A stretch of 64,000 nt of DNA from an uncultured Planctomycetia bacterium (GTDB taxonomy: Bacteria; Planctomycetota; UBA8108; UBA1146), in contig CAYRAM010000002.1 of the NCBI GenBank assembly GCA_964422295.1, positions 24,052 through 88,051 on the forward strand, written 5' to 3'. The notes beneath the pieces were generated by a model that searched no databases, was not told where the DNA came from, and saw only the letters and a program-made list of their open reading frames with translations. Shown here in pieces: positions 21,938-32,420 of the stretch; the first letter of the stretch is position 1, and every line of letters starts with the position of its first letter. A program made the position numbers and the translations under genes.

Positions 21938-23119
21938 TCAGGAGTCGGACCTCTTCAATTCCTTCAACACGCAGGCTTCAATCTTCTGTCCCCTGCGCAG
22001 AAGAGCGAGGATCCACTCGCCCGCCTCGCCGGAAAATCTGCGTCGTAAGCGGGCAGGGTCCTCCTTGACTCCGCGGGTCTTGATACTGGCCGGTGCGCAT
22101 CCCTGCTGTCGGAACCATTCAACGATCTTCTTTTCATGCCAGCCCATCTGGGCGACAACTGAAAAACTTCTGAACCACGGGCTGGTACGCTGCTCATCCC
22201 CCGCCAGCCAACCGAGTCCCGGATACCACTCCCCTGCAGAGATTTCCGATTGCAGGTGTCCGATGAGGCCGGAGCGCTCGATTGCGGGGCGAGGTTCATG
22301 CAGAAATGCAGGTTGCTTCAACGAACTCTGTTCAAGAGGTTGTAACTCACCACTGATCGTCAAATCGAGATCGACGATGGTTGCCGAACGACGCGAGCCG
22401 GTGGCCAAATCCCCACACCACAAAGTTGCCTCCACGAGGTCAGATCCATCCTGGATCCATTCGACTTCTCCATGAGGAAGTTTTTCTGCATCGATGCCGG
22501 GGCCGCACTTCAATGCCATCGATTTGTGTCGGTCGATCAACTCTTCGATGACTTGGGGACCCGGGATCATGTCTTCATAGGAGTGGAGCCTGTTAGATCC
22601 CTGTCGTCGGGAAGGATCGAGATGCAGTGGATAGGGGGGGAGAGGGAGGGATTCAGCTGTTGCGACCAATGGGTGGATCTGCCCATGCTGAAGATGGCAT
22701 TGAGCGAGATTGAAGCGGGCCAACATCACTCTCAGCGGGTTGCGATCGACATAGATCAGGGGGCCCCCTTCTGCGAGAGCTGCGGCGTCGCTGCCAATTC
22801 CGCAACAGAGATCGATGATGGGGTCGTCGCCGACCTGTCGCCGCAACTTTGCAGCTTTATATTCGGCGACCGTGGATCTTGTTGCTTGTTCTGCCCCCTC
22901 CCGGTCCATGAGCCAGGAGTTCGCATTCTTGAGTCTTCTCTTCGACTTCCTCCTTGCATCCATCACCTCAAGAACGACAGAAACTTCCTCAAGTGTCCCA
23001 GCCTTGCGCAATCGTGATATGGCGGAGACGTCCCCGGGGGGGATGTCCTGGGCCAGCTCCAGAAGCGGAGACAGGTTGCCGCGGATGAGTTTTCTCCAAG
23101 CTTCATTCATGGCAAGCAT
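21938..23119 (-). CDS. Class I SAM-dependent methyltransferase (THUMP-like / RNA methyltransferase-like).
   Basis: SAM motif I 'IIDLCCGIGSDAAALA' and a downstream acidic motif II 'IYVDRNP'. Confidence 0.5.
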   Translation of the reverse strand: MLAMNEAWRKLIRGNLSPLLELAQDIPPGDVSAISRLRKAGTLEEVSVVLEVMDARRKSKRRLKNANSWLMDREGAEQATRSTVAEYKAAKLRRQVGDDPIIDLCCGIGSDAAALAEGGPLIYVDRNPLRVMLARFNLAQCHLQHGQIHPLVATAESLPLPPYPLHLDPSRRQGSNRLHSYEDMIPGPQVIEELIDRHKSMALKCGPGIDAEKLPHGEVEWIQDGSDLVEATLWCGDLATGSRRSATIVDLDLTISGELQPLEQSSLKQPAFLHEPRPAIERSGLIGHLQSEISAGEWYPGLGWLAGDEQRTSPWFRSFSVVAQMGWHEKKIVEWFRQQGCAPASIKTRGVKEDPARLRRRFSGEAGEWILALLRRGQKIEACVLKELKRSDS

Positions 23120-23166
23120 CCTAGAGAAGGACTCATCAATTGAAACAATTTGGTGTCAATTCACTT

Positions 23167-23182
23167 TGTTTGGCTTGCCAAA
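23167..23182. promoter_or_regulatory. Palindromic operator-like site GTTTGGCTTGCCAAAC (copy 1) in the divergent region upstream of the porin-like gene.
   Basis: Perfect 7-2-7 inverted repeat. It is the same motif as at 24540 and 30914. Confidence 0.4.
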
Positions 23183-23277
23183 CAACAGGGGTCAGATTTA
23201 CGCTCTCCCCATCGGCGTCATCCGAGGGTCGCCGGTTTCATTATTTTCAGGACAGGCAGCGAGAGGATCAGCGTTCG

Positions 23278-24417
23278 ATGACGATGCAAAACCTACTGAG
23301 TGGACTTGTTTGCGCACTGATGATCGTGGGAGCTTTCCAAAGTGTCGAAGCGCAGGCAGATCGGAATGACGGCCGCCCTGCTGCCGAAGATGATCGGGAT
23401 ATCCGGGTGGGTGGATACCTCGATCTTGAGTTGTTCATGAATGGAGATCGATTCGATTTCAAGCAGCATCGGTTGGTCCCCATGCTGGATGCCAACATCA
23501 GCGAGAATGTCAGTTTCTCGGCAGAAATCGAGTTTGAGTACGGGGGAGCGAGTGCAGCCCGTGGAGACGGGGAAACCAAGGTGGAGTATGCCTTCGCAGA
23601 TATTGACTTCGATGGCTGGACCCTGAGATCGGGAGCCATCCTGATTCCTCTGGGTTCGACCAATCTCTATCACGATTCTCCGATGCGGCAATTGACCCAG
23701 CGCCCATTTGTTGCAAGAACCATCGTTCCATCGACTCTGACCAGCGCAGGGATGGGGGGAGTCTGGGGAGCCAGTGATGGAACCTGGAATGCGGAAGTTT
23801 ATCTGGTCAACGGGTTTCAGGGGGAGGATGGAGCGGGGGGTTATCTGTTTGATGCCTCCAGTGGAATCCGTGGGGGAAGGCCGAGCCTGAAAACAAATCT
23901 TGGGGATCGTGCTGCGAGTTTTGTTGGCAGATTTGCCTATAGCCCCGCGTTGGGCACCGAAGTCGGTTTCTCGATGTGGAATGGCCCCTGGGATGAAGCA
24001 GGGGATCTGGATTTGGGTATCCAAGTCATCGACATCTCCACAGATCTTGGAACTTGGGCGGACTCCCTGGGGTCGACGATCCTCAATTTTGAAATGGGGC
24101 AGGTTTCCATCGATCGGGATGCTGCGGCGATCGCAGGAGGAGTTCCTGAAACACTGGGCGCCACCTCCCTGGAGATCTCAAAAAGGATGTTCCCTGATTT
24201 TGTCACTCGACTCTGGGGCGAAGATTCCTCCTGCGCATTGACGATACGTTGGGAAGAGGAGGACTTGTCTGGACCGGTCAAGAATCGCATGACTTATGGC
24301 TTCAACATGAGGCCCACCGACGAAACCGTGCTCAAATTCGATTACGAACAGGAATCTGTCGACGGCTCTGAAGATCCGGACGCCACCTTTATCGTCTCCG
24401 CTGCGACCTACTTCTAG
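23278..24417 (+). CDS. Putative outer-membrane beta-barrel porin-like protein.
   Basis: Signal peptide 'LLSGLVCALMIVGAFQSVEA'. The composition alternates hydrophobic and polar residues and is Gly, Asp and Asn rich. It has a C-terminal aromatic end '...SAATYF', typical of an OMP beta-barrel terminal Phe. Confidence 0.45.
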   Translation: MTMQNLLSGLVCALMIVGAFQSVEAQADRNDGRPAAEDDRDIRVGGYLDLELFMNGDRFDFKQHRLVPMLDANISENVSFSAEIEFEYGGASAARGDGETKVEYAFADIDFDGWTLRSGAILIPLGSTNLYHDSPMRQLTQRPFVARTIVPSTLTSAGMGGVWGASDGTWNAEVYLVNGFQGEDGAGGYLFDASSGIRGGRPSLKTNLGDRAASFVGRFAYSPALGTEVGFSMWNGPWDEAGDLDLGIQVIDISTDLGTWADSLGSTILNFEMGQVSIDRDAAAIAGGVPETLGATSLEISKRMFPDFVTRLWGEDSSCALTIRWEEEDLSGPVKNRMTYGFNMRPTDETVLKFDYEQESVDGSEDPDATFIVSAATYF

Positions 24418-24539
24418 GCGGGTTCGACGGCACCTGTAAAGGCATTCAAGGGGCGAATTGACCTCGAATCGCGGTGCTTCAGCCAATTTCAGGGGGGCTG
24501 GAGTAAGAATTCGATCAAAAGCATGGAGTCAAGTCGTTT

Positions 24540-24555
24540 GTTTGGGTTGCCAAAC
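24540..24555. promoter_or_regulatory. Palindromic operator-like site GTTTGGGTTGCCAAAC (copy 2) upstream of the FMN_bind-ApbE / feoB operon.
   Basis: 15 of 16 positions match copy 1. It lies about 80 bp upstream of the ORF at 24633. Confidence 0.4.
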
Positions 24556-24632
24556 GGTACCAATTCGGTTCTATTTGCCTCGGGTTCGCCGATCGGCGCC
24601 CCAAGGATTCATCCCCCCGTGAAAGTTGCTTC

Positions 24633-26270
24633 ATGCGGACCGCATCACACCGTGTCAATTCGACTCACGAACCGTTGTACCCGTGCCGGCTACTTCGGGC
24701 AGGGTCGCAATTGCTATGGGTGAGCATCGTGCTCTTTGCGACTCTGGGGGACACCCGTGCGATGGAATCGATGGTCCCTTCTGAATCGGAACGGAAACCC
24801 GGTGAACTGATTCTCCCCGAGAAGACGTCAGGGAAATTCGATCGAGAAATCCTGCAAGAATTGTGGCCAGGAGAAATCCTCGTCGAAAAGTGTATTGTTC
24901 CAATTGAAGGAGAATTGAAGAGGGCGATCGTTCAGAGATGCAGAGTCAAGACGACGGATCACCTCAGTACGATCTTCAGAATTCGCGATGCCAAGAGTCA
25001 GGAATTGGGACACGTGGTGATTCTTGATGAGATTGGCAAATATCGGCCAATCACCTTTTTTGTTGCCCTCGATGCAAGAGATCATGTCCTCGATCTTCAG
25101 GTATTGGTGTACCGGGAACATATTGGCAAGGAGATTGAGTCTGCACGATTCACACGCCAATTCAGGGATAAACGATCTTCCAGCATCCTGAAATTGCATC
25201 GGGATATCCGCAATTTGTCAGGGGCAACATTGTCGGCTCGCGCTGCAGTTCGAGCGGTGAGAAGAGCCTTGGCCACCGTGGAAGAGGCCGTGCGTGCAGA
25301 CGATGGGCTCCTCTGGCAACGCCATTCGGGACCTGTTCTCACTTACGGAGACCTCGGGGGAGGGGAGCCCTTCTCTGCCTCCGGGATGGAGCCATCGCCT
25401 CCCGCCGAGCAGGAAATCGGCAAGACCTCCGGCAGTACCGTGTCTTTCCGAAACGGTGAAGAGAAATTGATCCAGAGGGCGCGGCCGGCGATGGGAACGA
25501 TCCTGAAAATCGACGTTTTTGGAGATCACGCCCTCGCGGCAGTCGATGCCGCTTTTGCTGAAGTGGAACGCATCGAATCCCTTCACAGCCGTTGGCGACG
25601 CGACAGTGATGTTTGCAAGGTTGAGGCCGCTTCCACCGGGCAAGCCGTCAAAGTTTCTGCTGAGACGATCGAAGTGGTCGAGAGAGCGTTACAAATGTCA
25701 CGGGAGAGTGGCGGCGCTTTCGACCTGACTCTGAAAAAAGACGGATACAAATCGGTCAAGATCGATGCGCACGAGCAAACGATTACTCTGTTGAAGCCTG
25801 AGTTGATCCTCGACCTTGGCGGCATTGGCAAAGGCTATGCCCTCGATAGAGCGGCTGCCATTCTTGAATCTTATGGTTGCTCCAGTGCGCTCCTCGACTT
25901 TGGTGGACAGTTGCTCGCATTGGATCCTCCTCCGGGTGAAGAGGCGTGGCCAGTGGGTATCTTCGACCCACGTGATGGCAGGACGGTCTTGCATCAGTTG
26001 CCTCTGGTGAGGTCATCCCTCGCCACCACGGCGAACTATGAACGAGGAGACCACCTCGTCCATCTCCTCGACAGAGAATCAAGCCACCGTGTTCTGACCA
26101 CGTCAGTCATCTCTGAGAGTGCTACTCAAGCGGACTTGCTCAGTACCACGGTTGCTCTTCTCGATCAGGATCGGGCTCAGATGGTTCTCAACAGTCAGCC
26201 CGGTGCTTCTGCGGTTCTCCTGATTGAAGGAGAGGATGAGCCCAGGTTCATGGGTCGCTCCAAGCGCTGA
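24633..26270 (+). CDS. Membrane-anchored fusion of an FMN-binding domain (flavinylation target) with an ApbE-type FAD:protein FMN transferase.
   Basis: N-terminal TM 'LLWVSIVLFATLG'. The FMN_bind domain carries the flavinylation motif 'DIRNLSGATLSARA'. The C-terminal half has ApbE signatures ('ILDLGGIGKGYALDRAA', 'ALLDFGGQLLAL', 'TSVISESATQADLLSTT'). Confidence 0.7.
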   Translation: MRTASHRVNSTHEPLYPCRLLRAGSQLLWVSIVLFATLGDTRAMESMVPSESERKPGELILPEKTSGKFDREILQELWPGEILVEKCIVPIEGELKRAIVQRCRVKTTDHLSTIFRIRDAKSQELGHVVILDEIGKYRPITFFVALDARDHVLDLQVLVYREHIGKEIESARFTRQFRDKRSSSILKLHRDIRNLSGATLSARAAVRAVRRALATVEEAVRADDGLLWQRHSGPVLTYGDLGGGEPFSASGMEPSPPAEQEIGKTSGSTVSFRNGEEKLIQRARPAMGTILKIDVFGDHALAAVDAAFAEVERIESLHSRWRRDSDVCKVEAASTGQAVKVSAETIEVVERALQMSRESGGAFDLTLKKDGYKSVKIDAHEQTITLLKPELILDLGGIGKGYALDRAAAILESYGCSSALLDFGGQLLALDPPPGEEAWPVGIFDPRDGRTVLHQLPLVRSSLATTANYERGDHLVHLLDRESSHRVLTTSVISESATQADLLSTTVALLDQDRAQMVLNSQPGASAVLLIEGEDEPRFMGRSKR

Positions 26271-26304
26271 TATCAAGGGGACCATCAAACAGGAGGTGGA
26301 GTCG

Positions 26305-28245
26305 ATGAACAGGGAACAGGGCAGAGATACGCTCCGTATCTCCATCGCCGGAAATCCCAATGTCGGCAAATCGACCCTCTTCAATGCCCTCGTTTCGGGG
26401 CGGGCACGAGTTTCCAACTATCCCGGAATCACCGCCGAAGCATTAATCGGCAGAGGGACGTGGGGCGACGTCCAGGTTGAGGTCACCGATCTCCCCGGTT
26501 GTTACGGCATGCAACTCGATCTACCTGAGTCACGGCTCTGTAAAGAACACTTGTCTTCACCGCAAAGACCAGACCTCATCGTCAATTTGATCGATGCGGT
26601 CAGTTTGCGTCGCAACTTGAACATGCTTGCAGAGTGTCTTCAGGAAAATAGTTCTCACATCGTCATGGTGACCCGCACCGATGAGGCCCGACTGAGGGGG
26701 ATCGAGATCGACTTCGACCGCTTCAGCGAGTTGGTCGGCGTGCCGGTGATCGAGTTGGCTCACAGGAGTTCTCACAAGCAAGAACCATTGAAGGAGATAC
26801 TGCTCGAAGCAGCAAACTCTGCTCCTGCAAGGATCGAAGTGGGTGACCCCTCTGAGTGGGGTGACGATGTTGCTGCTGCAGTCACTCGACCCGTCAATCC
26901 CGAAGAAGCCCGCAAGAGGAGAAAGAGGGAGGATCGACTCGATGGTCTTTTGCTGCATCCGATTTGGGGATTGGGATCTTTTCTTCTCATCATGGGATTG
27001 CTTTTTGCCAGCGTATTTTGGTTGGCACAATTTCCCATGGAGTGGCTCGATACTTTCTTTGCGTCAGTCTCGTCGTGGGTGGGATCCAGTATGCCCGAGG
27101 GCGAGGTCAGGGATTTGGTCACGGAGGGAATCATCGGCGGAGTTTCGGGAACGCTGATTTTTCTGCCGCAAGTCTTGCTGCTCTTCTTTCTGATCAGTCT
27201 GCTCGAAGAAACCGGATATTTGGCCAGGGCGGCACTCGTTGCAGACCGCTGGCTGAGACCCTTTGGTTTGCCAGGTCACTCCTTCGTTCCATTGCTCTCC
27301 AGTCATGCCTGTGCCATCCCTGGCATCCTCTGTACCCGGCTCATCCCCGATCGCCGGGACCGATTGGCTGCGATTCTGGTGGCGCCATTCCTCTCATGTT
27401 CAGCGCGGTTGCCGGTATACCAACTCCTGGTGGGATTGCTCTTTCCCGGAAATCCACTCGTCGCAGGAATGGCGTTTGTGGGCTGTTATCTCCTGGGCGC
27501 ATTGGCCGCCATCATGACCGCGTTTCTGGTCCGTCAGTTTTTGCTTCCAGGACGCAGCCCCAATCTCATTCTTGAGCTTCCTCCCTTCCAGAGGCCATCG
27601 ATGTTGGGCTCCCTCCATACCGCTGGGCACCGGGGCTGGCTCTTCATCAAAAATGCGGGAAGCGTCATCCTGTTGATGTGCATCATATTGTGGTGGTTGG
27701 GGAGTTACCCAAAGGTGGGAGAGAGTCCCCAGGTGGTCGATTTACGTGCGCAAGCGGCGGCGACCGCCACAGCAGAGGACGCACTTGCGGTAGGGATGGA
27801 AGCGGATGCTCTTGCCGCAAAAGAGAGTACTTCCGCTTCATACCTGGGACAGATCGGAAAAACAGTGGAGCCGATCTTTGCACCGATCGGTGCCGATTGG
27901 CAATTGTCGATCTCGGTGATGGCGAGTTTTGCGGCTCGGGAAGTGTTCGTATCAGCCACAAGCGTTATTCTCGGCACAGGCGAGGAAGGTGATGCGCAAA
28001 CATTGATGGAGAAGATCGAAAATTCAACAAGAGACGATGGTGCACCCCTTCTGACTCCTTCAGCGGCAGCGGGACTGCTGGTGTTCTTTGTGCTCGCGAT
28101 GCAGTGTCTGCCGACCCTCGCAGTGACCCGCAAGGAGGCGGGTGGATGGAAGTGGGCATTACTGCAATTCTTGTGGATGAGTGTCCTTGCTTGGAGCTTG
28201 GCAGCATTGACCCGGGGTATTCTCAAGTTTTCAGGAGTGGAATAA
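26305..28245 (+). CDS. feoB: Ferrous iron transport protein B.
   Basis: G-domain 'ISIAGNPNVGKSTLFNALVSG', 'DLPGCY' and 'NLID' motifs, followed by the polytopic membrane domain. The ATG at 26305 is preceded by AGGAGGTGGA. Confidence 0.9.
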   Translation: MNREQGRDTLRISIAGNPNVGKSTLFNALVSGRARVSNYPGITAEALIGRGTWGDVQVEVTDLPGCYGMQLDLPESRLCKEHLSSPQRPDLIVNLIDAVSLRRNLNMLAECLQENSSHIVMVTRTDEARLRGIEIDFDRFSELVGVPVIELAHRSSHKQEPLKEILLEAANSAPARIEVGDPSEWGDDVAAAVTRPVNPEEARKRRKREDRLDGLLLHPIWGLGSFLLIMGLLFASVFWLAQFPMEWLDTFFASVSSWVGSSMPEGEVRDLVTEGIIGGVSGTLIFLPQVLLLFFLISLLEETGYLARAALVADRWLRPFGLPGHSFVPLLSSHACAIPGILCTRLIPDRRDRLAAILVAPFLSCSARLPVYQLLVGLLFPGNPLVAGMAFVGCYLLGALAAIMTAFLVRQFLLPGRSPNLILELPPFQRPSMLGSLHTAGHRGWLFIKNAGSVILLMCIILWWLGSYPKVGESPQVVDLRAQAAATATAEDALAVGMEADALAAKESTSASYLGQIGKTVEPIFAPIGADWQLSISVMASFAAREVFVSATSVILGTGEEGDAQTLMEKIENSTRDDGAPLLTPSAAAGLLVFFVLAMQCLPTLAVTRKEAGGWKWALLQFLWMSVLAWSLAALTRGILKFSGVE

Positions 28246-28250
28246 TCACA

Positions 28251-28367
28251 GTGACCTTCGATGATCCGCAGTTCATATTTGTGACGCTATTGGCCATTGT
28301 TGCAGTGGTAGTTCTCTTATGGAGACGGGGTGGTGGTTCATCCGACGATTGCGGTTCCTGCTCTTAA
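28251..28367 (+). CDS. FeoB-associated Cys-rich small membrane protein (tentative).
   Basis: About 38 aa immediately after feoB: one TM 'FIFVTLLAIVAVVVLLW' followed by 'RRGGGSSDDCGSCS'. GTG start with a modest RBS. Confidence 0.35.
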   Translation: MTFDDPQFIFVTLLAIVAVVVLLWRRGGGSSDDCGSCS

Positions 28368-28464
28368 TGAAACGTGATTCCTCGCGGTCGTATGGTATCG
28401 TATCCGTGGTCAGGTTGCCCCGAGGGGCCTGATCTCAGCAAGTTGATATTGAGAAAGGAATCCC

Positions 28465-29619
28465 ATGCTTCCAATTAGGTTAGTGAATCTCGCCTTTGCC
28501 CTGTTGTTACTGGGCACTGCGGCGTTGATTGCAGCGCCTCCTGATTCTGCAGACAAAATCGATCAGAAGCAGGAAGAGGAGGCAAAAAAGGCTTTTGATT
28601 CCATCTACGAAAAGATGAATGAAGCACAAGATGCTTACTACAAGCCCTTCATCGATGCCCGGGAGAAGGGATTGAGCCCGGAGGAAATGGACAAAATCGA
28701 ACTCGATCCGGAACTTGAGCCGGTCAAAATCGTGGGTCCGGAACTGTTGCGTGGAATCGAGAAATTTGCCGGGACTGAGGCCGCACTCCAGGCTTGTGAC
28801 CGGCTGATGGGGATGGCAGGCAGAAGCGATACCCAGGGGTGGATGGTCGAAAAGGTAGTCGCTGTTCTCAAAGCCCATTATCTCAAGAATCCAAACTTGT
28901 TGAATGTGGTACGCTTCGCCCATTACGGCAGTGACGCTCCGGTGATGAAGGAGTTCCTCGGTACAGTGGTGAGTGAGTCCCCCCATAGGGAGGTACAGGC
29001 CGCAAGCTGCTACTCGCTGGCAAAGATGCTGGGCAAGAAAGAGGAAACCCGGGGTGAAGGTTTGGCGATGCTGAAAAAGGTGCAAACCGACTTTGGGGAT
29101 GTCCCATACAGGGGGGATCGTGTCTATGCGGACAAGGTCAAGGGCGACCTCTTCGAAATGGAAAATCTGCAAATCGGATGCGTGGCACCGGAAATCATCG
29201 GCAAAGAGATCTCAGGAAGTTTAATGCAGCTTTCTGCCTTCAGGGGCAAAGTGGTGCTACTCGATTTCTGGGGAGACTGGTGAGGACCTTGCAGGGCGAT
29301 GTACCCACACGAGCGGTCGCTCGTAGAAAAATACTCAGCAGATACATTTGCCATCGTCGGCATTAATTCCGACTCCACGATTGAAAAAGCCAGGGAAGTG
29401 GTCAAAGAGAACAAACTCAACTGGCTCAACTTCTACGATGGAGGCACCGATGGTCCCATTGCGACGCGGTGGAATGTCAGTGGTTGGCCAACGATCTACC
29501 TCATCGATGCCAAAGGAGTGATTCGATTCAAGGATGTTCGTGGCAAGAAGTTGGATGCGGCCATCGAGGTGCTGTTGAATGAAACGAAAGCTGAAAAAGC
29601 AGTAGAGGCTGGCAAGTAG
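28465..29619 (+). CDS. Selenocysteine-containing TlpA-like thiol:disulfide oxidoreductase with a U-G-P-C active site. The TGA at 29281-29283 is read as Sec.
   Basis: ORF 28465..29283 ends '...GKVVLLDFWGDW', then TGA. Reading on in the same frame gives 'GPCRAMYPHERSLVEKYSADTFAIVGINSDSTIEKAREVVKENKLNWLNFYDGG...GWPTIYLIDAKGVI' (ORF 29299..29619 is in the same frame). This reproduces the TlpA consensus 'FWASWCGPCR', with Sec at the first Cys. Signal peptide at the N-terminus. Confidence 0.7.
29309..29324 (+). promoter_or_regulatory. Candidate SECIS apical hairpin with a GGUC loop, 25 nt downstream of UGA 29281.
   Basis: acgagc-GGUC-gcucgu: a 6-bp stem with the loop GGUC, the same apical-loop sequence as the E. 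coli fdhF SECIS. A lower helix is possible with the 5' flank. Confidence 0.35.
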
Positions 29620-29647
29620 TTTTCGCATCTTCGAATCGCGATCAGGT

Positions 29648-30334
29648 TTATCCTGGAGATTCTTCTTTCGAAGAATCTCCAGGATTTTTTTCGTCGGTTC
29701 CAAAACCCATTGGGCACCCACCTGAGGAGGATTTCTCATCTGAGTTCTTTTTAGGAAACAGGGGAGCTTGGGGTGGAGGGTCAGCTTCGCCTTTTCCACG
29801 CCTGCGAAGTGGTGCCCACCACAGTTCATCGAGACAAGCCAAAGAACCGAGTGAGAGTGTCAGCAGCAGGAGTGATCCACCGAGAATTTGGGAAAAGAGA
29901 GCCAGGGTACTCCCCGAGGCGATCATCAAAGGCGAAAAGAGAAGCCCTGCCAGGCTGCCATATCCCGTAAACGCGAGGGTGACCTTGATGGAGGTCGACC
30001 AGGGAGTCAGTTCAAAGAGATGGAGGATGACGAAGAGGAGCATCGCCAAAGAAAAGATGTGATCGTGGATGAATGCGAGCAATTCACGGGGTGTCTTCTC
30101 TGACATCATTTCTTCCGCATCGAGATCGTTCTCATTGCCGAGAACCCATTCACGGGCATTTTCAGGTGTAAATCCTCCCGCACTGCTGGAGTATTGGAGA
30201 GTTGCCACAAAGCACCCTCCAATGACCGATAGCAGAAAGAGTGTCAGCAGCCAGCGAGTGGAGGTGTTTGCTCGGGCGAGAGTGAAACCGGCCTGTTTGT
30301 AGAACTGGGTCAAGTCAGCGCTCCCCATCCTCAC
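29648..30334 (-). CDS. Hypothetical polytopic membrane protein.
   Basis: About 5 predicted TM helices. No family was recognised. The 3' end overlaps the terminator hairpin. Confidence 0.4.
   Translation of the reverse strand: MRMGSADLTQFYKQAGFTLARANTSTRWLLTLFLLSVIGGCFVATLQYSSSAGGFTPENAREWVLGNENDLDAEEMMSEKTPRELLAFIHDHIFSLAMLLFVILHLFELTPWSTSIKVTLAFTGYGSLAGLLFSPLMIASGSTLALFSQILGGSLLLLTLSLGSLACLDELWWAPLRRRGKGEADPPPQAPLFPKKNSDEKSSSGGCPMGFGTDEKNPGDSSKEESPG
29653..29693. terminator. Rho-independent terminator after the selenoprotein gene.
   Basis: cctggagattcttctttcgaagaatctccagg followed by attttttt. Confidence 0.55.
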
Positions 30335-30389
30335 GATGACAGATGACTTTGATTTTGGTCAGGACTGATAGGCTCAATGAGAATGCCGC

Positions 30390-30623
30390 TCAGCAATTCA
30401 GAGGAACAACTCTCAGTGTCGCTGCGATGTCTTCGCTGAGTCCCAGCCGTTGGCCTTTGATCTCAAGGACACAGGTACCGGAGTTGTGACAAACACGCAG
30501 TTCACAATCGTCACACAATCCCATCGATTCAAGGAGAGGGCGTTGATCGTGGGGAATCGATTCGGCGATGAGTCTACCGCTTTCACCCTGCTGCATATCG
30601 AAGAGTGAACGCATGCGGGACAT
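30390..30623 (-). CDS. feoA: FeoA-family small protein.
   Basis: An SH3-like FeoA pattern 'LFDMQQGESGRLIAESIPHDQRPLLESMGLCDDCELRVCHNSGTCVLEIKGQRLGLSEDIAATLRVV'. The start was taken at the internal ATG (MSRMRSL). Confidence 0.55.
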   Translation of the reverse strand: MSRMRSLFDMQQGESGRLIAESIPHDQRPLLESMGLCDDCELRVCHNSGTCVLEIKGQRLGLSEDIAATLRVVPLNC

Positions 30624-30913
30624 CGTCTCGTTGGCTGCGGCTTCAAGGTTTGAGGCCCCGGAAGCGGGTGTGGGCTGGGAATGAGGGTAATAAGGTGATT
30701 CTTGATCGGCCTTCATGACTCTCCAGCAAAGGTGACTTCAGGTACTACCAACAGTGTCCGCCTCGACACAGAAACACCCATCGCTGCCGAAAGGTATCTT
30801 CCCTGATCGGATAGGAGACTTGTTATCGAAGGGGAGCGGCATTAACCTGCCCTCCGGTTTACAAAGTCGCCCAAGAGAGTAGTTGTACCGGTTGTTTAAG
30901 GAACCGTCAACCT

Positions 30914-30929
30914 GTTTGGGTAGCCAAAC
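30914..30929. promoter_or_regulatory. Palindromic operator-like site GTTTGGGTAGCCAAAC (copy 3) in the divergent feoA / DtxR-family promoter region.
   Basis: 14 of 16 positions match copy 1. It sits just upstream of the predicted regulator start, consistent with autoregulation. Confidence 0.4.
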
Positions 30930-30942
30930 GAATGGGGTCTCA

Positions 30943-31503
30943 TTGATTGATTGGCGTGAGTTTGACCAGAATCCGGTGAGCCACTCCGCTGCCCACCACC
31001 TGACTTCGATTCAGCAGTTGCTGGATGAGCAGGGGTACGCGCGCGTCTCAGATGTTGCCCGCAAACTGGGGATCACCCGGGGGAGTGTCTCGGTGACCCT
31101 GAAAGGTCTGAGGCAACGGGGTCTCGTGATCGAGGATCAGCACAAACATCTGGGACTCTCGGATGAGGGGCTGAGAATTGCCCGTGGGATTCACACAAAG
31201 AGGATCCTCTTCAAGGCATTTCTCCAGGACTCCTTGGGTCTGCCTGCTGAGTTGGCAGAGTTGGACGCTTGCAAGGTGGAACATCTGGTGAGCGATGTGA
31301 CTGCGGAGGCTTTGGCAATCTATATGGAGCGTAATGGAATCGGCGAGGGTGCTTCCAAAGACCGCAAGGAACAAGTAAAGGCATTGGAAGTCAGTATCAA
31401 AGATGGTCGCATCGATGCTTTCCCTGGTGAAGATGTTGAGGCATTTTCAGAACAGTTGCAAAGCAGGAGTGATGCGGGAAGCAAGGGGCAAACAGATGAG
31501 TAG
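30943..31503 (+). CDS. DtxR/MntR-family metal-dependent transcriptional regulator.
   Basis: 'HHLTSIQQLLDEQGYARVSDVARKLGITRGSVSVTLKGLRQRGLV' matches the DtxR winged-HTH, followed by a dimerisation/metal-binding region. The start is uncertain (TTG 30943 or GTG 30976). The ORF track starts at 30883, but that would place the palindrome inside the ORF. Confidence 0.7.
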   Translation: MIDWREFDQNPVSHSAAHHLTSIQQLLDEQGYARVSDVARKLGITRGSVSVTLKGLRQRGLVIEDQHKHLGLSDEGLRIARGIHTKRILFKAFLQDSLGLPAELAELDACKVEHLVSDVTAEALAIYMERNGIGEGASKDRKEQVKALEVSIKDGRIDAFPGEDVEAFSEQLQSRSDAGSKGQTDE

Positions 31504-31945
31504 TTATTCCCGTGAAGACGCTTTGCGTCGTTTGAATGAGTTGTTGGCCGAAGAGTTGGAAGCATCGATCCGTTACTTGCATTTGAGTACACTCGTGCAG
31601 GGCATCGACCGACTGGTGATTCAAAAAGTTCTTCAAGAGAATCACGAGGAGACGATTGAGCATGCGCAACAGGTTTCAGAAAAGATCATTCAGGTCGGTG
31701 GAGTACCACAACCGAAAATCAATCTGGAGTTGACCGGGAACAAGTGCACCGGGATCGAAGCTCTTCAGATCGCACTGCTCTTTGAGCAGGCTGCCTTGGA
31801 CGCTTACGGAGAATTTCTTGAAGTAGTCGAGGGCAGCGGGGATGTGATCCTCGAAGAATTCGCTCGTCAACAAGTGGCAATCGAATCGGAGCATGTCTCA
31901 GAATTGCAAATGCTCATAGGAGATACCACCGTTGGCAGCAAGTGA
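31496..31945 (+). CDS. Ferritin-like diiron-carboxylate protein (bacterioferritin/Dps-like).
   Basis: Ferroxidase-type motifs 'EELEASIRYLH', 'ENHEETIEHAQ' and 'ESEHVSEL'. It is about 149 aa. Its ATG overlaps the regulator stop, so it forms an operon with the DtxR-family gene. Confidence 0.6.
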   Translation: MSSYSREDALRRLNELLAEELEASIRYLHLSTLVQGIDRLVIQKVLQENHEETIEHAQQVSEKIIQVGGVPQPKINLELTGNKCTGIEALQIALLFEQAALDAYGEFLEVVEGSGDVILEEFARQQVAIESEHVSELQMLIGDTTVGSK

Positions 31946-32420
31946 TCGTCCAGGTGGACTGACGGCACTGACAGTGCTCAATGGCTTCTTTGCTCTCAAT
32001 GTCGGCGGGACGACGATCCAGCGCTTCATCACCTCCTATGAGCTTATGAATGTCGCCGAATCAGGTGTTCAGGGGAGCCCCTGGCGCAGGAGATATCTTC
32101 AATCCCTCCTGGATGAAGGTCTCAGTGCATGGGAGCTGCAAGTTATCGCACTCATAGGTTTGGCTGCCACATTGCTCTTGCTGGTTTCGATTTGGGGATT
32201 GCTGAAACGCAGTAACCTGATTGGGAGGTGGCTTGGCACCCTGGGAGCAGTATCTCTCGCAATCTTTTACCTGCTCAACATCAATTGGCTTCCCGAGACG
32301 ATTTTACGGGGAAGCGGTTTGTCGATCGCACGCCAACTCTTTTATCCTGTTTTTCTGATCTTCATGCTCCATGTGATCTTCCGCAGGGACTTTCTGTTTC
32401 AACCGGGGAGGTCCGGATGA
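31932..32420 (+). CDS. Hypothetical small membrane protein (start uncertain).
   Basis: Hydrophobic segments are present. Its stop overlaps the ATG of the downstream permease (ATGA). A TTG start overlaps the ferritin-like gene. An alternative start is the ATG at 32046. Confidence 0.3.
   Translation: MAASDRPGGLTALTVLNGFFALNVGGTTIQRFITSYELMNVAESGVQGSPWRRRYLQSLLDEGLSAWELQVIALIGLAATLLLLVSIWGLLKRSNLIGRWLGTLGAVSLAIFYLLNINWLPETILRGSGLSIARQLFYPVFLIFMLHVIFRRDFLFQPGRSG

Follow-up and report, generated by a model that had tools for sequence, protein, structure and literature searches.

The window, as the whole stretch of 64,000 nucleotides analyzed here will be called, belongs to contig CAYRAM010000002.1 (assembly GCA_964422295.1) of an uncultured Planctomycetia bacterium. 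It includes a gene cluster for ferrous-iron uptake, a gene coding for a DtxR-family metalloregulator and three copies of the palindrome GTTTGG-N4-CCAAAC. We consider it probable, on the basis of the sequence comparisons described below, that the palindrome is the operator of the adjacent regulator, and that this protein represses the iron-uptake cluster in an Fe2+-dependent manner and regulates its own gene.

The palindrome is present in the window in exactly three copies, located at positions 23168-23183 (site A, GTTTGGCTTGCCAAAC), 24540-24555 (site B, GTTTGGGTTGCCAAAC) and 30914-30929 (site C, GTTTGGGTAGCCAAAC). Searches with the patterns GTTTGGNNNGCCAAAC and GTTTGGNNNNCCAAAC produced exact matches at all three coordinates, and GTTTGG-N3-GCCAAAC, searched on the plus strand, matched the same three sites. 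Site A is a perfect 7-2-7 palindrome, and therefore its minus strand was matched too. The mean number of matches to the palindrome pattern in 100 dinucleotide-preserving shuffles was 0. Weaker copies were sought across the 64 kb with two mismatches, and also with the relaxed pattern GTTTKR-N4-YMAAAC with one mismatch allowed. Both searches added nothing to the three sites, which indicates that the window has three strong sites without a halo of weak ones. The initial annotation had described three copies in promoter regions; all three are exact, and the position of the first one had to be corrected from 23167-23182 to 23168-23183.

The genes around the sites were assigned by Pfam and NCBIfam searches. 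Site A lies between the divergent genes for a THUMP-like methyltransferase (21938-23119, minus strand) and a Porin_O_P-like outer-membrane channel (23278..24417, plus strand; Pfam PF07396, E 4.5e-05), the latter being syntenic in orthologous loci. Site B is found 78 nt upstream of the start codon of a gene for a fusion of an FMN_bind (RnfG-like) domain and an ApbE flavin transferase (24633..26270, plus strand; Pfam PF02424, 5e-48, and PF04205; the NCBIfam ApbE and RnfG matches were below cut-off). The same operon includes the gene for the ferrous-iron transporter FeoB (26224..28245 for the open reading frame [ORF] as listed, plus strand; Pfam FeoB_N, Gate and FeoB_C), the true start of which is probably about 80 nt farther downstream, since the tblastn matches start at residues 23-38. 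The last gene of this operon codes for a TlpA/ResA-like thioredoxin-fold protein (28465..29619, plus strand).

Site C is flanked by feoA (30390..30716, minus strand; Pfam PF04023) and by the regulator gene (30943..31503, plus strand; 186 amino acids), which was identified by Pfam domains Fe_dep_repress and Fe_dep_repr_C scoring above the gathering threshold, by the N-termini of its homologs and by AlphaFold and Foldseek. The start of the regulator was placed at the TTG at 30943 because 34 homologs begin with M(I/x)DW(R/K)EF; the 206-amino-acid ORF that starts at 30883 and runs through site C is probably over-extended. Site C ends 14 nt ahead of this TTG, in line with the earlier description of a third copy immediately before the regulator start, and it is 3 bp upstream of the proposed -35 hexamer of feoA. 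The start of a gene for a ferritin-like di-iron protein (31496..31945, plus strand; Pfam PF00210, 1.4e-17) overlaps the regulator stop codon, and a ferritin-like gene follows the regulator in every orthologous locus. The third gene of this operon, orf162 (31932..32420, plus strand), codes for a conserved membrane protein without a Pfam or NCBIfam match. The ferritin-like gene had been named before as a target; it has no operator site of its own, and would belong to the regulon only by being second in the regulator operon.

Conservation of the palindrome and proposed promoter geometry

Species-representative genomes were scanned with an alignment of the regulator, and 80 loci were collected, of which 26 are close and 54 are more distant. 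Nearly all of them come from metagenome-assembled genomes (MAGs) labelled Planctomycetota, Phycisphaerae, Calditrichota or KSB1. The close set consists of 26 species-level loci with regulators 52-76% identical to that of the window. The operator was found upstream of the regulator in all 26 (23 exact copies and three with one mismatch), together with one or two further copies located 4-8 kb upstream wherever the contig extends that far. Comparison by tblastn with the window proteins showed that the gene order is shared and that the sites occupy the same three junctions in the close loci. The window and the 26 related loci, 504 kb in total, contain 52 exact sites compared to 0.03 expected, and none of these 52 is located inside a homology-defined gene. 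Gene boundaries were taken from tblastn for this count; stop-free stretches failed as a proxy for coding regions because ORFs extend upstream of the true starts at this G+C content.

The position of site A is conserved in loci L001-L004, L006-L009 and L013-L014, and that of site B in L001-L004 and L006-L007, while L017 and L020-L022 have a single distal site. Three loci (L010, L017 and L022) lack the porin and ApbE genes, and in these the distal site is directly upstream of feoB. In L023-L026, where feoA-feoB is inverted, a single site separates the divergent feoA-feoB and regulator genes. The site is thus upstream of feoB or of the regulator despite the changes in gene order, i.e., the palindrome tracks these genes through rearrangements. 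Identity among the porin proteins is just 33-45%, and the flanking sequences cannot be aligned between clades. Alignments anchored at the operator showed that, beyond the palindrome, a few short blocks only are conserved. Diverged flanks and weakly similar porins around a preserved palindrome make up a classical phylogenetic footprint. By selection, all twelve arm positions are invariant. Outside them, 95% of the copies are preceded by T and 56% are followed by A, and the central four bases carry the least information.

A metagenome-wide scan for TGTTTGGNTNGCCAAAC, done in search of more regulon members, returned 120 matches, 118 of them in unrelated contigs and mostly inside ORFs; those in L085 and L183 were the only ones belonging to the same feo/dtxR cluster, and no member was added to the regulon. 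The 15-base pattern lacks specificity outside the lineage. Among the other matches, a contig of 38% G+C (L155) has two intergenic copies (790-806 and 948-964) with identical flanks, 158 bp apart. Another match, tttgtGTTTGGCWAACCAAACAggaat, is recurrent in marine contigs of low G+C content (31-42%), within a stop-free stretch of about 110-155 codons (L086, L099, L121, L122, L143, L158, L160, L165, L171, L177, L178, L184 and L192), and is most likely a conserved coding sequence.

We infer promoter elements at all three sites from their conservation across species. At sites A and B, TTGCCA is part of the right operator half and matches the -35 consensus in five of six positions; consequently, a bound dimer would occupy the -35 region. 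The putative porin promoter (23175..23202, plus strand) consists of this TTGCCA (23175-23180), a 16-nt spacer and the -10-like TTTACG (23197-23202), and the porin orthologs have TATAAC, TCTAAC or GTACAT at an equal distance from TTGCCA. Likewise, the putative FMN_bind-ApbE/feoB promoter (24547..24575, plus strand) combines TTGCCA (24547-24552) with a 17-nt spacer and the -10-like TCTATT (24570-24575); TCTATT is at the same offset in the loci that conserve site B (L001-L004 and L006-L007). Four loci (L008, L009, L013 and L014) have two sites 55 bp apart ahead of the porin gene, the second of which would fall in the early transcribed region.

At site C the candidate promoter is a sigma-70-like one for feoA (30882..30910, minus strand), with the -35 TTGACG at 30910-30905, a 17-nt spacer and the -10 TACAAC at 30887-30882. 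In 21 non-redundant loci the blocks GTCAAC and AGTnTAGCG keep a fixed spacing to the operator. Their minus-strand reading is TTGACG, a 17-18-nt spacer and a -10, the latter having the form TAnnnT/C in every clade. Site C is located at about -39 to -54 relative to this promoter. Sites A and C, but not site B, are also preceded at exactly 20 bp by a half-site-like block (TTTGG or GTTTR), which is conserved at the equivalent positions in L001-L026. In the window these blocks are ATTTGG at 23148..23153 (plus strand; 20 bp from site A, start to start, with TTTGG at -19..-15 in 11 site-A alignments) and GTTTAA at 30894..30899 (plus strand; inside the spacer of the feoA promoter, with tGTTtg conserved at -21..-16). 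They might recruit a second dimer.

The regulator and its recognition helix

The regulator has an N-terminal winged helix-turn-helix domain (Pfam PF01325, Fe_dep_repress; 29.8 bits with a gathering score of 26) and a helical metal-binding and dimerization domain (PF02742; 37.7 bits with a gathering score of 27). Its AlphaFold model, with a predicted local distance difference test (pLDDT) score of 85.6, includes the helices and the beta-wing of the DNA-binding domain. The top Foldseek matches of the model were MntR, IdeR and DtxR, all with probability 1.00. The root-mean-square deviation from DtxR and IdeR was 1.1-1.5 Å over about 113 residues, and the model superposes on MntR too. The C-terminus is formed by two helices in the model, with no beta-rich or SH3-like domain. 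NCBIfam equivalogs were missed in all cases, with scores of 65.9 (cut-off 153) and 47.6 (cut-off 138) for the MntR models PRK11050 and PRK03902, and 34.4 (cut-off 290) for DtxR. The protein is a member of the DtxR family by the Pfam definition, and is outside both the DtxR/IdeR and the MntR subfamilies.

Metal ligands were compared using an ungapped BLASTP alignment with DtxR, the C102/E105/H106 motif of which is well established. Residues H18, C110, E113 and H114 of the regulator align with DtxR M10, C102, E105 and H106, i.e., the primary metal site is kept. The ancillary site is lost, with R87, K91 and E106 aligning with DtxR H79, E83 and H98. An alignment with Bacillus subtilis MntR agrees with these equivalences: the MntR ligands D8, E11, H77, E99, E102 and H103 align with H18, T21, R87, C110, E113 and H114. 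The residues H14, H18, H19, D108, C110, E113 and H114 are invariant in 35 homologs, and so is the motif D108-A-C110-K-V-E113-H114, which is of the C/E-x-x-E-H type. The predicted metal site thus consists of His18, Cys110, Glu113 and His114. A further feature was observed in the C-terminal tail, where other clades of the subfamily conserve C-x-x-C-x3-C-L (alignment A1, columns 201-215; P0055, P0072, P0076, P0081, P0082, P0086, P0097, P0101, P0103, P0114 and P0115) and the window clade has F-P-x-x-E. Such a Cys-rich tail may provide additional sensing of metal or redox state.

The sequence of the recognition helix changes together with that of the operator. The helix ITRGSVSVTLKGL (SVSVT) was present in every genome with GG/CC half-sites. 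Relatives with the helix ITRGSAS(I/L)TLK have instead GTTTTA-N4-TAAAAC or hybrid sites (for example, GTTTGG...TAAAAC), located 50-80 nt upstream of their own genes. The TA/TA or hybrid half-sites that accompany the SAS(I/L)T helix persist in loci of 62-63% G+C, and the presence of TA half-sites in such G+C-rich loci means that base composition does not explain the change. Residue 51, which is Val in one group and Ile or Leu in the other, aligns with DtxR Gln43; a DtxR Q43A variant crystallized on DNA (structure 7b25) was among the Foldseek matches. A GTTT-(palindromic NN)-N4-AAAC sequence scoring at least 9/10 is present within 350 bp upstream of the regulator in 37% of the 54 distant loci, compared to 0.5% of control windows. 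The pairing of an altered helix with an altered operator ties the protein to the site. Moreover, the hybrid GG...TA sites break hairpin pairing, which favors evolution of the two halves under recognition by a protein rather than as the strands of an RNA stem. One scan of species-representative genomes yielded at least 383 relatives, with Planctomycetota, Phycisphaerae, Calditrichota, KSB1 and Bacteroidota-like MAGs among the labels.

Proposed circuit and alternative explanations

The conserved positions of the sites, their presence next to the regulator in all of the close loci and the co-variation of helix and operator uphold the initial proposal that the palindrome is a lineage-specific operator of the neighboring DtxR-family regulator, serving the local iron cluster and the regulator's own operon. 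From these observations we infer that the protein binds the palindrome, which metal it senses and that it acts as a repressor. The operator of this two-domain regulator would be (T)GTTTGG-N4-CCAAAC(A), the half-sites of which, 10 bp apart from center to center, would fit one dimer that reaches into successive major grooves from one face of the DNA with its two recognition helices. The regulator with metal, most likely Fe2+, in the His18/Cys110/Glu113/His114 site would bind the three sites and block RNA polymerase. At sites A and B it would occlude the porin and FMN_bind-ApbE/feoB/TlpA-like promoters through the -35-like TTGCCA. At site C the operator would abut the -35 of the putative promoter for feoA and the membrane-protein gene downstream of it. 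When iron is scarce, the apo-protein would leave the DNA and the ferrous-iron uptake cluster would be expressed. Fe2+ is favored because of the DtxR-type His/Cys/Glu/His ligands and because of the gene content of the cluster (FeoA, FeoB and the ferritin-like protein).

Autoregulation, which had been suggested before, finds support in the location of site C 14 nt before the start codon, but the clearest promoter at this site faces feoA. In the window clade a Shine-Dalgarno-like sequence directly follows the operator, so that transcription would start within or upstream of the site, which points to negative autoregulation there. Being located just upstream of the ribosome-binding region of the regulator, an occupied site C would probably dampen the regulator-ferritin-orf162 operon too.

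A number of points weigh against Fe2+-dependent repression as proposed here. It is physiologically odd that a ferritin-like gene should be repressed under high iron, and this is the weakest point of the proposal. In other clades the site is 70-260 nt upstream of the regulator, from where it could act positively on the regulator operon. A conserved plus-strand promoter for this operon was sought within and downstream of site C, and no conserved element was found at the -10 offset. A generic sigma-70 scan called none of the proposed promoters, Planctomycetota promoters being poorly characterized. The assignment of the metal draws on ligand chemistry and gene content, the source annotations name the regulator homologs "Mn-dependent" DtxR family, and some FeoB proteins are said to transport manganese. 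In regulators with the helix ITRGSVSISL(Q/R/G)PLK (L051, L061, L065, L071-L074, L076, L077 and L079), the GTTT...AAAC palindrome was not found within 350 bp upstream; this SVSISLQPLK-helix clade presumably uses a different operator. Lastly, the related-genome DNA covered amounts to about 0.5 Mb.

The alternative to co-repression is that the storage operon is activated, by analogy with IdeR, which acts positively at bfrA and bfrB. With the operator beside the feoA -35 and a half-site 20 bp away, one operator could exert opposite control, i.e., repression of uptake through feoA and activation of storage through the regulator-ferritin operon. A broader version of this idea, about which we are doubtful, is that the protein belongs to an uncharacterized DtxR subfamily with a single His/Cys/Glu/His site that serves in place of Fur as the main iron sensor of these phyla and exerts such dual control. 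The traits of this candidate subfamily may include a helical C-terminal domain, Cys-rich in some clades, and the family-wide operator TGTTT(G/T)(G/A)-N4-(C/T)(C/A)AAACA.

It is unlikely that the same regulator and operator form an MntR-like circuit in which Mn2+ is sensed and manganese, alone or along with iron, enters through Feo. It is true that MntR of E. coli and of B. subtilis gave the best sequence and NCBIfam matches, the regulator has two domains and no SH3 domain, as MntR does, and its homologs carry the manganese label in the source records mentioned above. Nonetheless, MntR D8, E11, H77 and E99 are replaced by H18, T21, R87 and C110, the resulting H-C-E-H set copies the primary site of DtxR and IdeR, and the NCBIfam MntR equivalog scores are far under the cut-off. 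The operon partner is ferritin-like and the targets are feoA and feoB, which also speaks for Fe2+.

Much less probable is that another, unlinked factor, for example a Fur-family protein, binds the palindrome and that the DtxR-family gene is merely one of its targets. The co-localization of regulator and site is circumstantial and would be compatible with such a factor. However, all 26 close genomes and many distant ones, under several phylum-level labels, have the site together with the regulator gene, the half-site bases shift with the recognition helix independently of G+C content, and the motif is unlike the Fur-type boxes quoted in PMC545781. An RNA element acting on translation or stability (a 6-bp hairpin with a 4-nt loop in 5' leaders) or a mere shared promoter element can hardly be credited: site C is just before the ribosome-binding region of the regulator and could be transcribed, and the motif includes the -35-like TTGCCA at sites A and B, but the arms are invariant instead of co-varying, the hybrid GTTTGG...TAAAAC would not pair, the -35 location of sites A and B puts them ahead of the proposed transcription start, the region has no Rfam match at E up to 1, and a -35 alone has no need of a perfect inverted repeat.

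Accessory genes and comparison with known systems

The gene for the thioredoxin-fold protein at the end of the feoB operon was originally listed as two ORFs, of 272 and 106 amino acids, which are one frame (28465-29619, plus strand) split by an in-frame TGA at 29281-29283. This TGA takes the place of the first Cys in the thioredoxin motif (...LLDFWGDW-TGA-GPCRAMYP..., read as W-U-G-P-C) and is followed about 27 nt downstream by the hairpin ACGAGC-GGTC-GCTCGT. Both the TGA and the hairpin are kept in 22 related loci (21 genome loci and the metagenome locus L183). The gene product, which starts with a signal-like segment, is thus a TlpA/ResA-like protein and a candidate for selenocysteine use (UGPC). 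The 164-amino-acid ORF on the minus strand (29335-29829) is probably a shadow of this gene. Together, the FMN_bind-ApbE fusion, the porin and the thioredoxin-fold protein suggest, by way of speculation, an extracytoplasmic or periplasmic flavin-based reductive step that feeds Fe2+ to FeoB.

The feoB and feoA operons converge on a 16-bp perfect hairpin followed by a T-run (29650..29685), which probably acts as a terminator in both directions. Downstream of feoA there is a gene for a conserved multi-pass membrane protein (29648..30334, minus strand) without a Pfam or NCBIfam match, which has a His-rich transmembrane segment, FIHDHIFSLAMLLFVILHLFE. This protein and the one encoded at 31932-32420 on the plus strand are fixed members of the cluster. 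At the other end, the methyltransferase was considered as a target and rejected; it is probably not regulated, with a -10-like TAGGAT adjoining its ATG, about 35 bp from site A. TAGGAT or TACGAT is conserved about 8-12 nt upstream of this ATG on the minus strand (23119-23135 in the window, and the orthologous positions), and it resembles a -10 at a distance that would give an mRNA with a very short leader or none.

A metal-loaded repressor that occludes promoters is a textbook mechanism, and the circuit proposed here is an ordinary one in a little-studied group. What is new, and well supported by the sequence comparisons, is the lineage-specific operator and local iron regulon of an uncharacterized DtxR subfamily. 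Marine Planctomycetota are an abundant group, mostly without cultured members, in which metal regulation has hardly been studied. A search of the full-text literature, which left much subscription literature and databases such as RegPrecise outside, found no paper linking DtxR-family regulators, this motif and Planctomycetota, and no account of the motif or of regulation of the DtxR type in this phylum. The operator-regulator pair provides a position weight matrix with which iron regulons can be annotated in MAGs, a testable iron-sensor candidate for these lineages and a defined set of promoters and operators for planctomycete genetic tools. It also flags as iron-regulated an unusual set of Feo accessory proteins, namely the porin, the FMN_bind-ApbE fusion and the candidate selenocysteine TlpA-like protein.

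Among the closest known systems are the MntR regulators of B. subtilis and E. coli, which gave the best sequence and structure matches and are of the same two-domain size class, acting as dimeric repressors of metal importers. Four of their six ligand positions differ in the window regulator, which has Cys in place of Glu99, and their targets are mntH or mntABC rather than feo and ferritin-like genes. With DtxR of Corynebacterium diphtheriae (about 27% identity) and IdeR of Mycobacterium and Saccharopolyspora, the regulator shares the winged-helix and dimerization fold and the primary metal site, in which Cys, Glu and His are identical and Met10 of DtxR is replaced by His. A palindromic operator is shared too, and so would be its overlap with iron-uptake promoters and the presence of a ferritin gene in the regulon. 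In contrast, DtxR and IdeR are three-domain proteins with an ancillary site and an SH3-like domain, neither of which is found in the window regulator. The operators differ as well: the arms are GTTTGG here and TTAGG in the IdeR box TTAGGTTAGCCTAACCTAA, and the symmetry is even, over 16-18 bp, compared to odd, over 19 bp. Recognition of the 19-bp TTAGGTTAGCCTAACCTAA box was therefore rejected, the conserved arms being GTTTGG/CCAAAC and the IdeR-like center being variable. The likeness of GTAGCC/GGCTTGCC to the core of the IdeR/DtxR box, noted in the initial annotation, did not hold, as the matching bases are the variable central four and the symmetry axes differ.

A close parallel in the logic of the regulon is found in the delta-proteobacteria Geobacter and Desulfuromonas, for which Fur-controlled clusters of feoAB and a PF07396-like porin ("psp") have been predicted (Rodionov et al. 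2004, PMC545781). There, as in the window, a Feo transporter, a phosphate-porin-like channel and the regulator's own gene carry the operator (PMC545781). The regulator of those clusters is of the Fur family and its box is WTGAAAATNATTTTCAW (PMC545781), whereas the cluster described here has a DtxR-family regulator and a different box.

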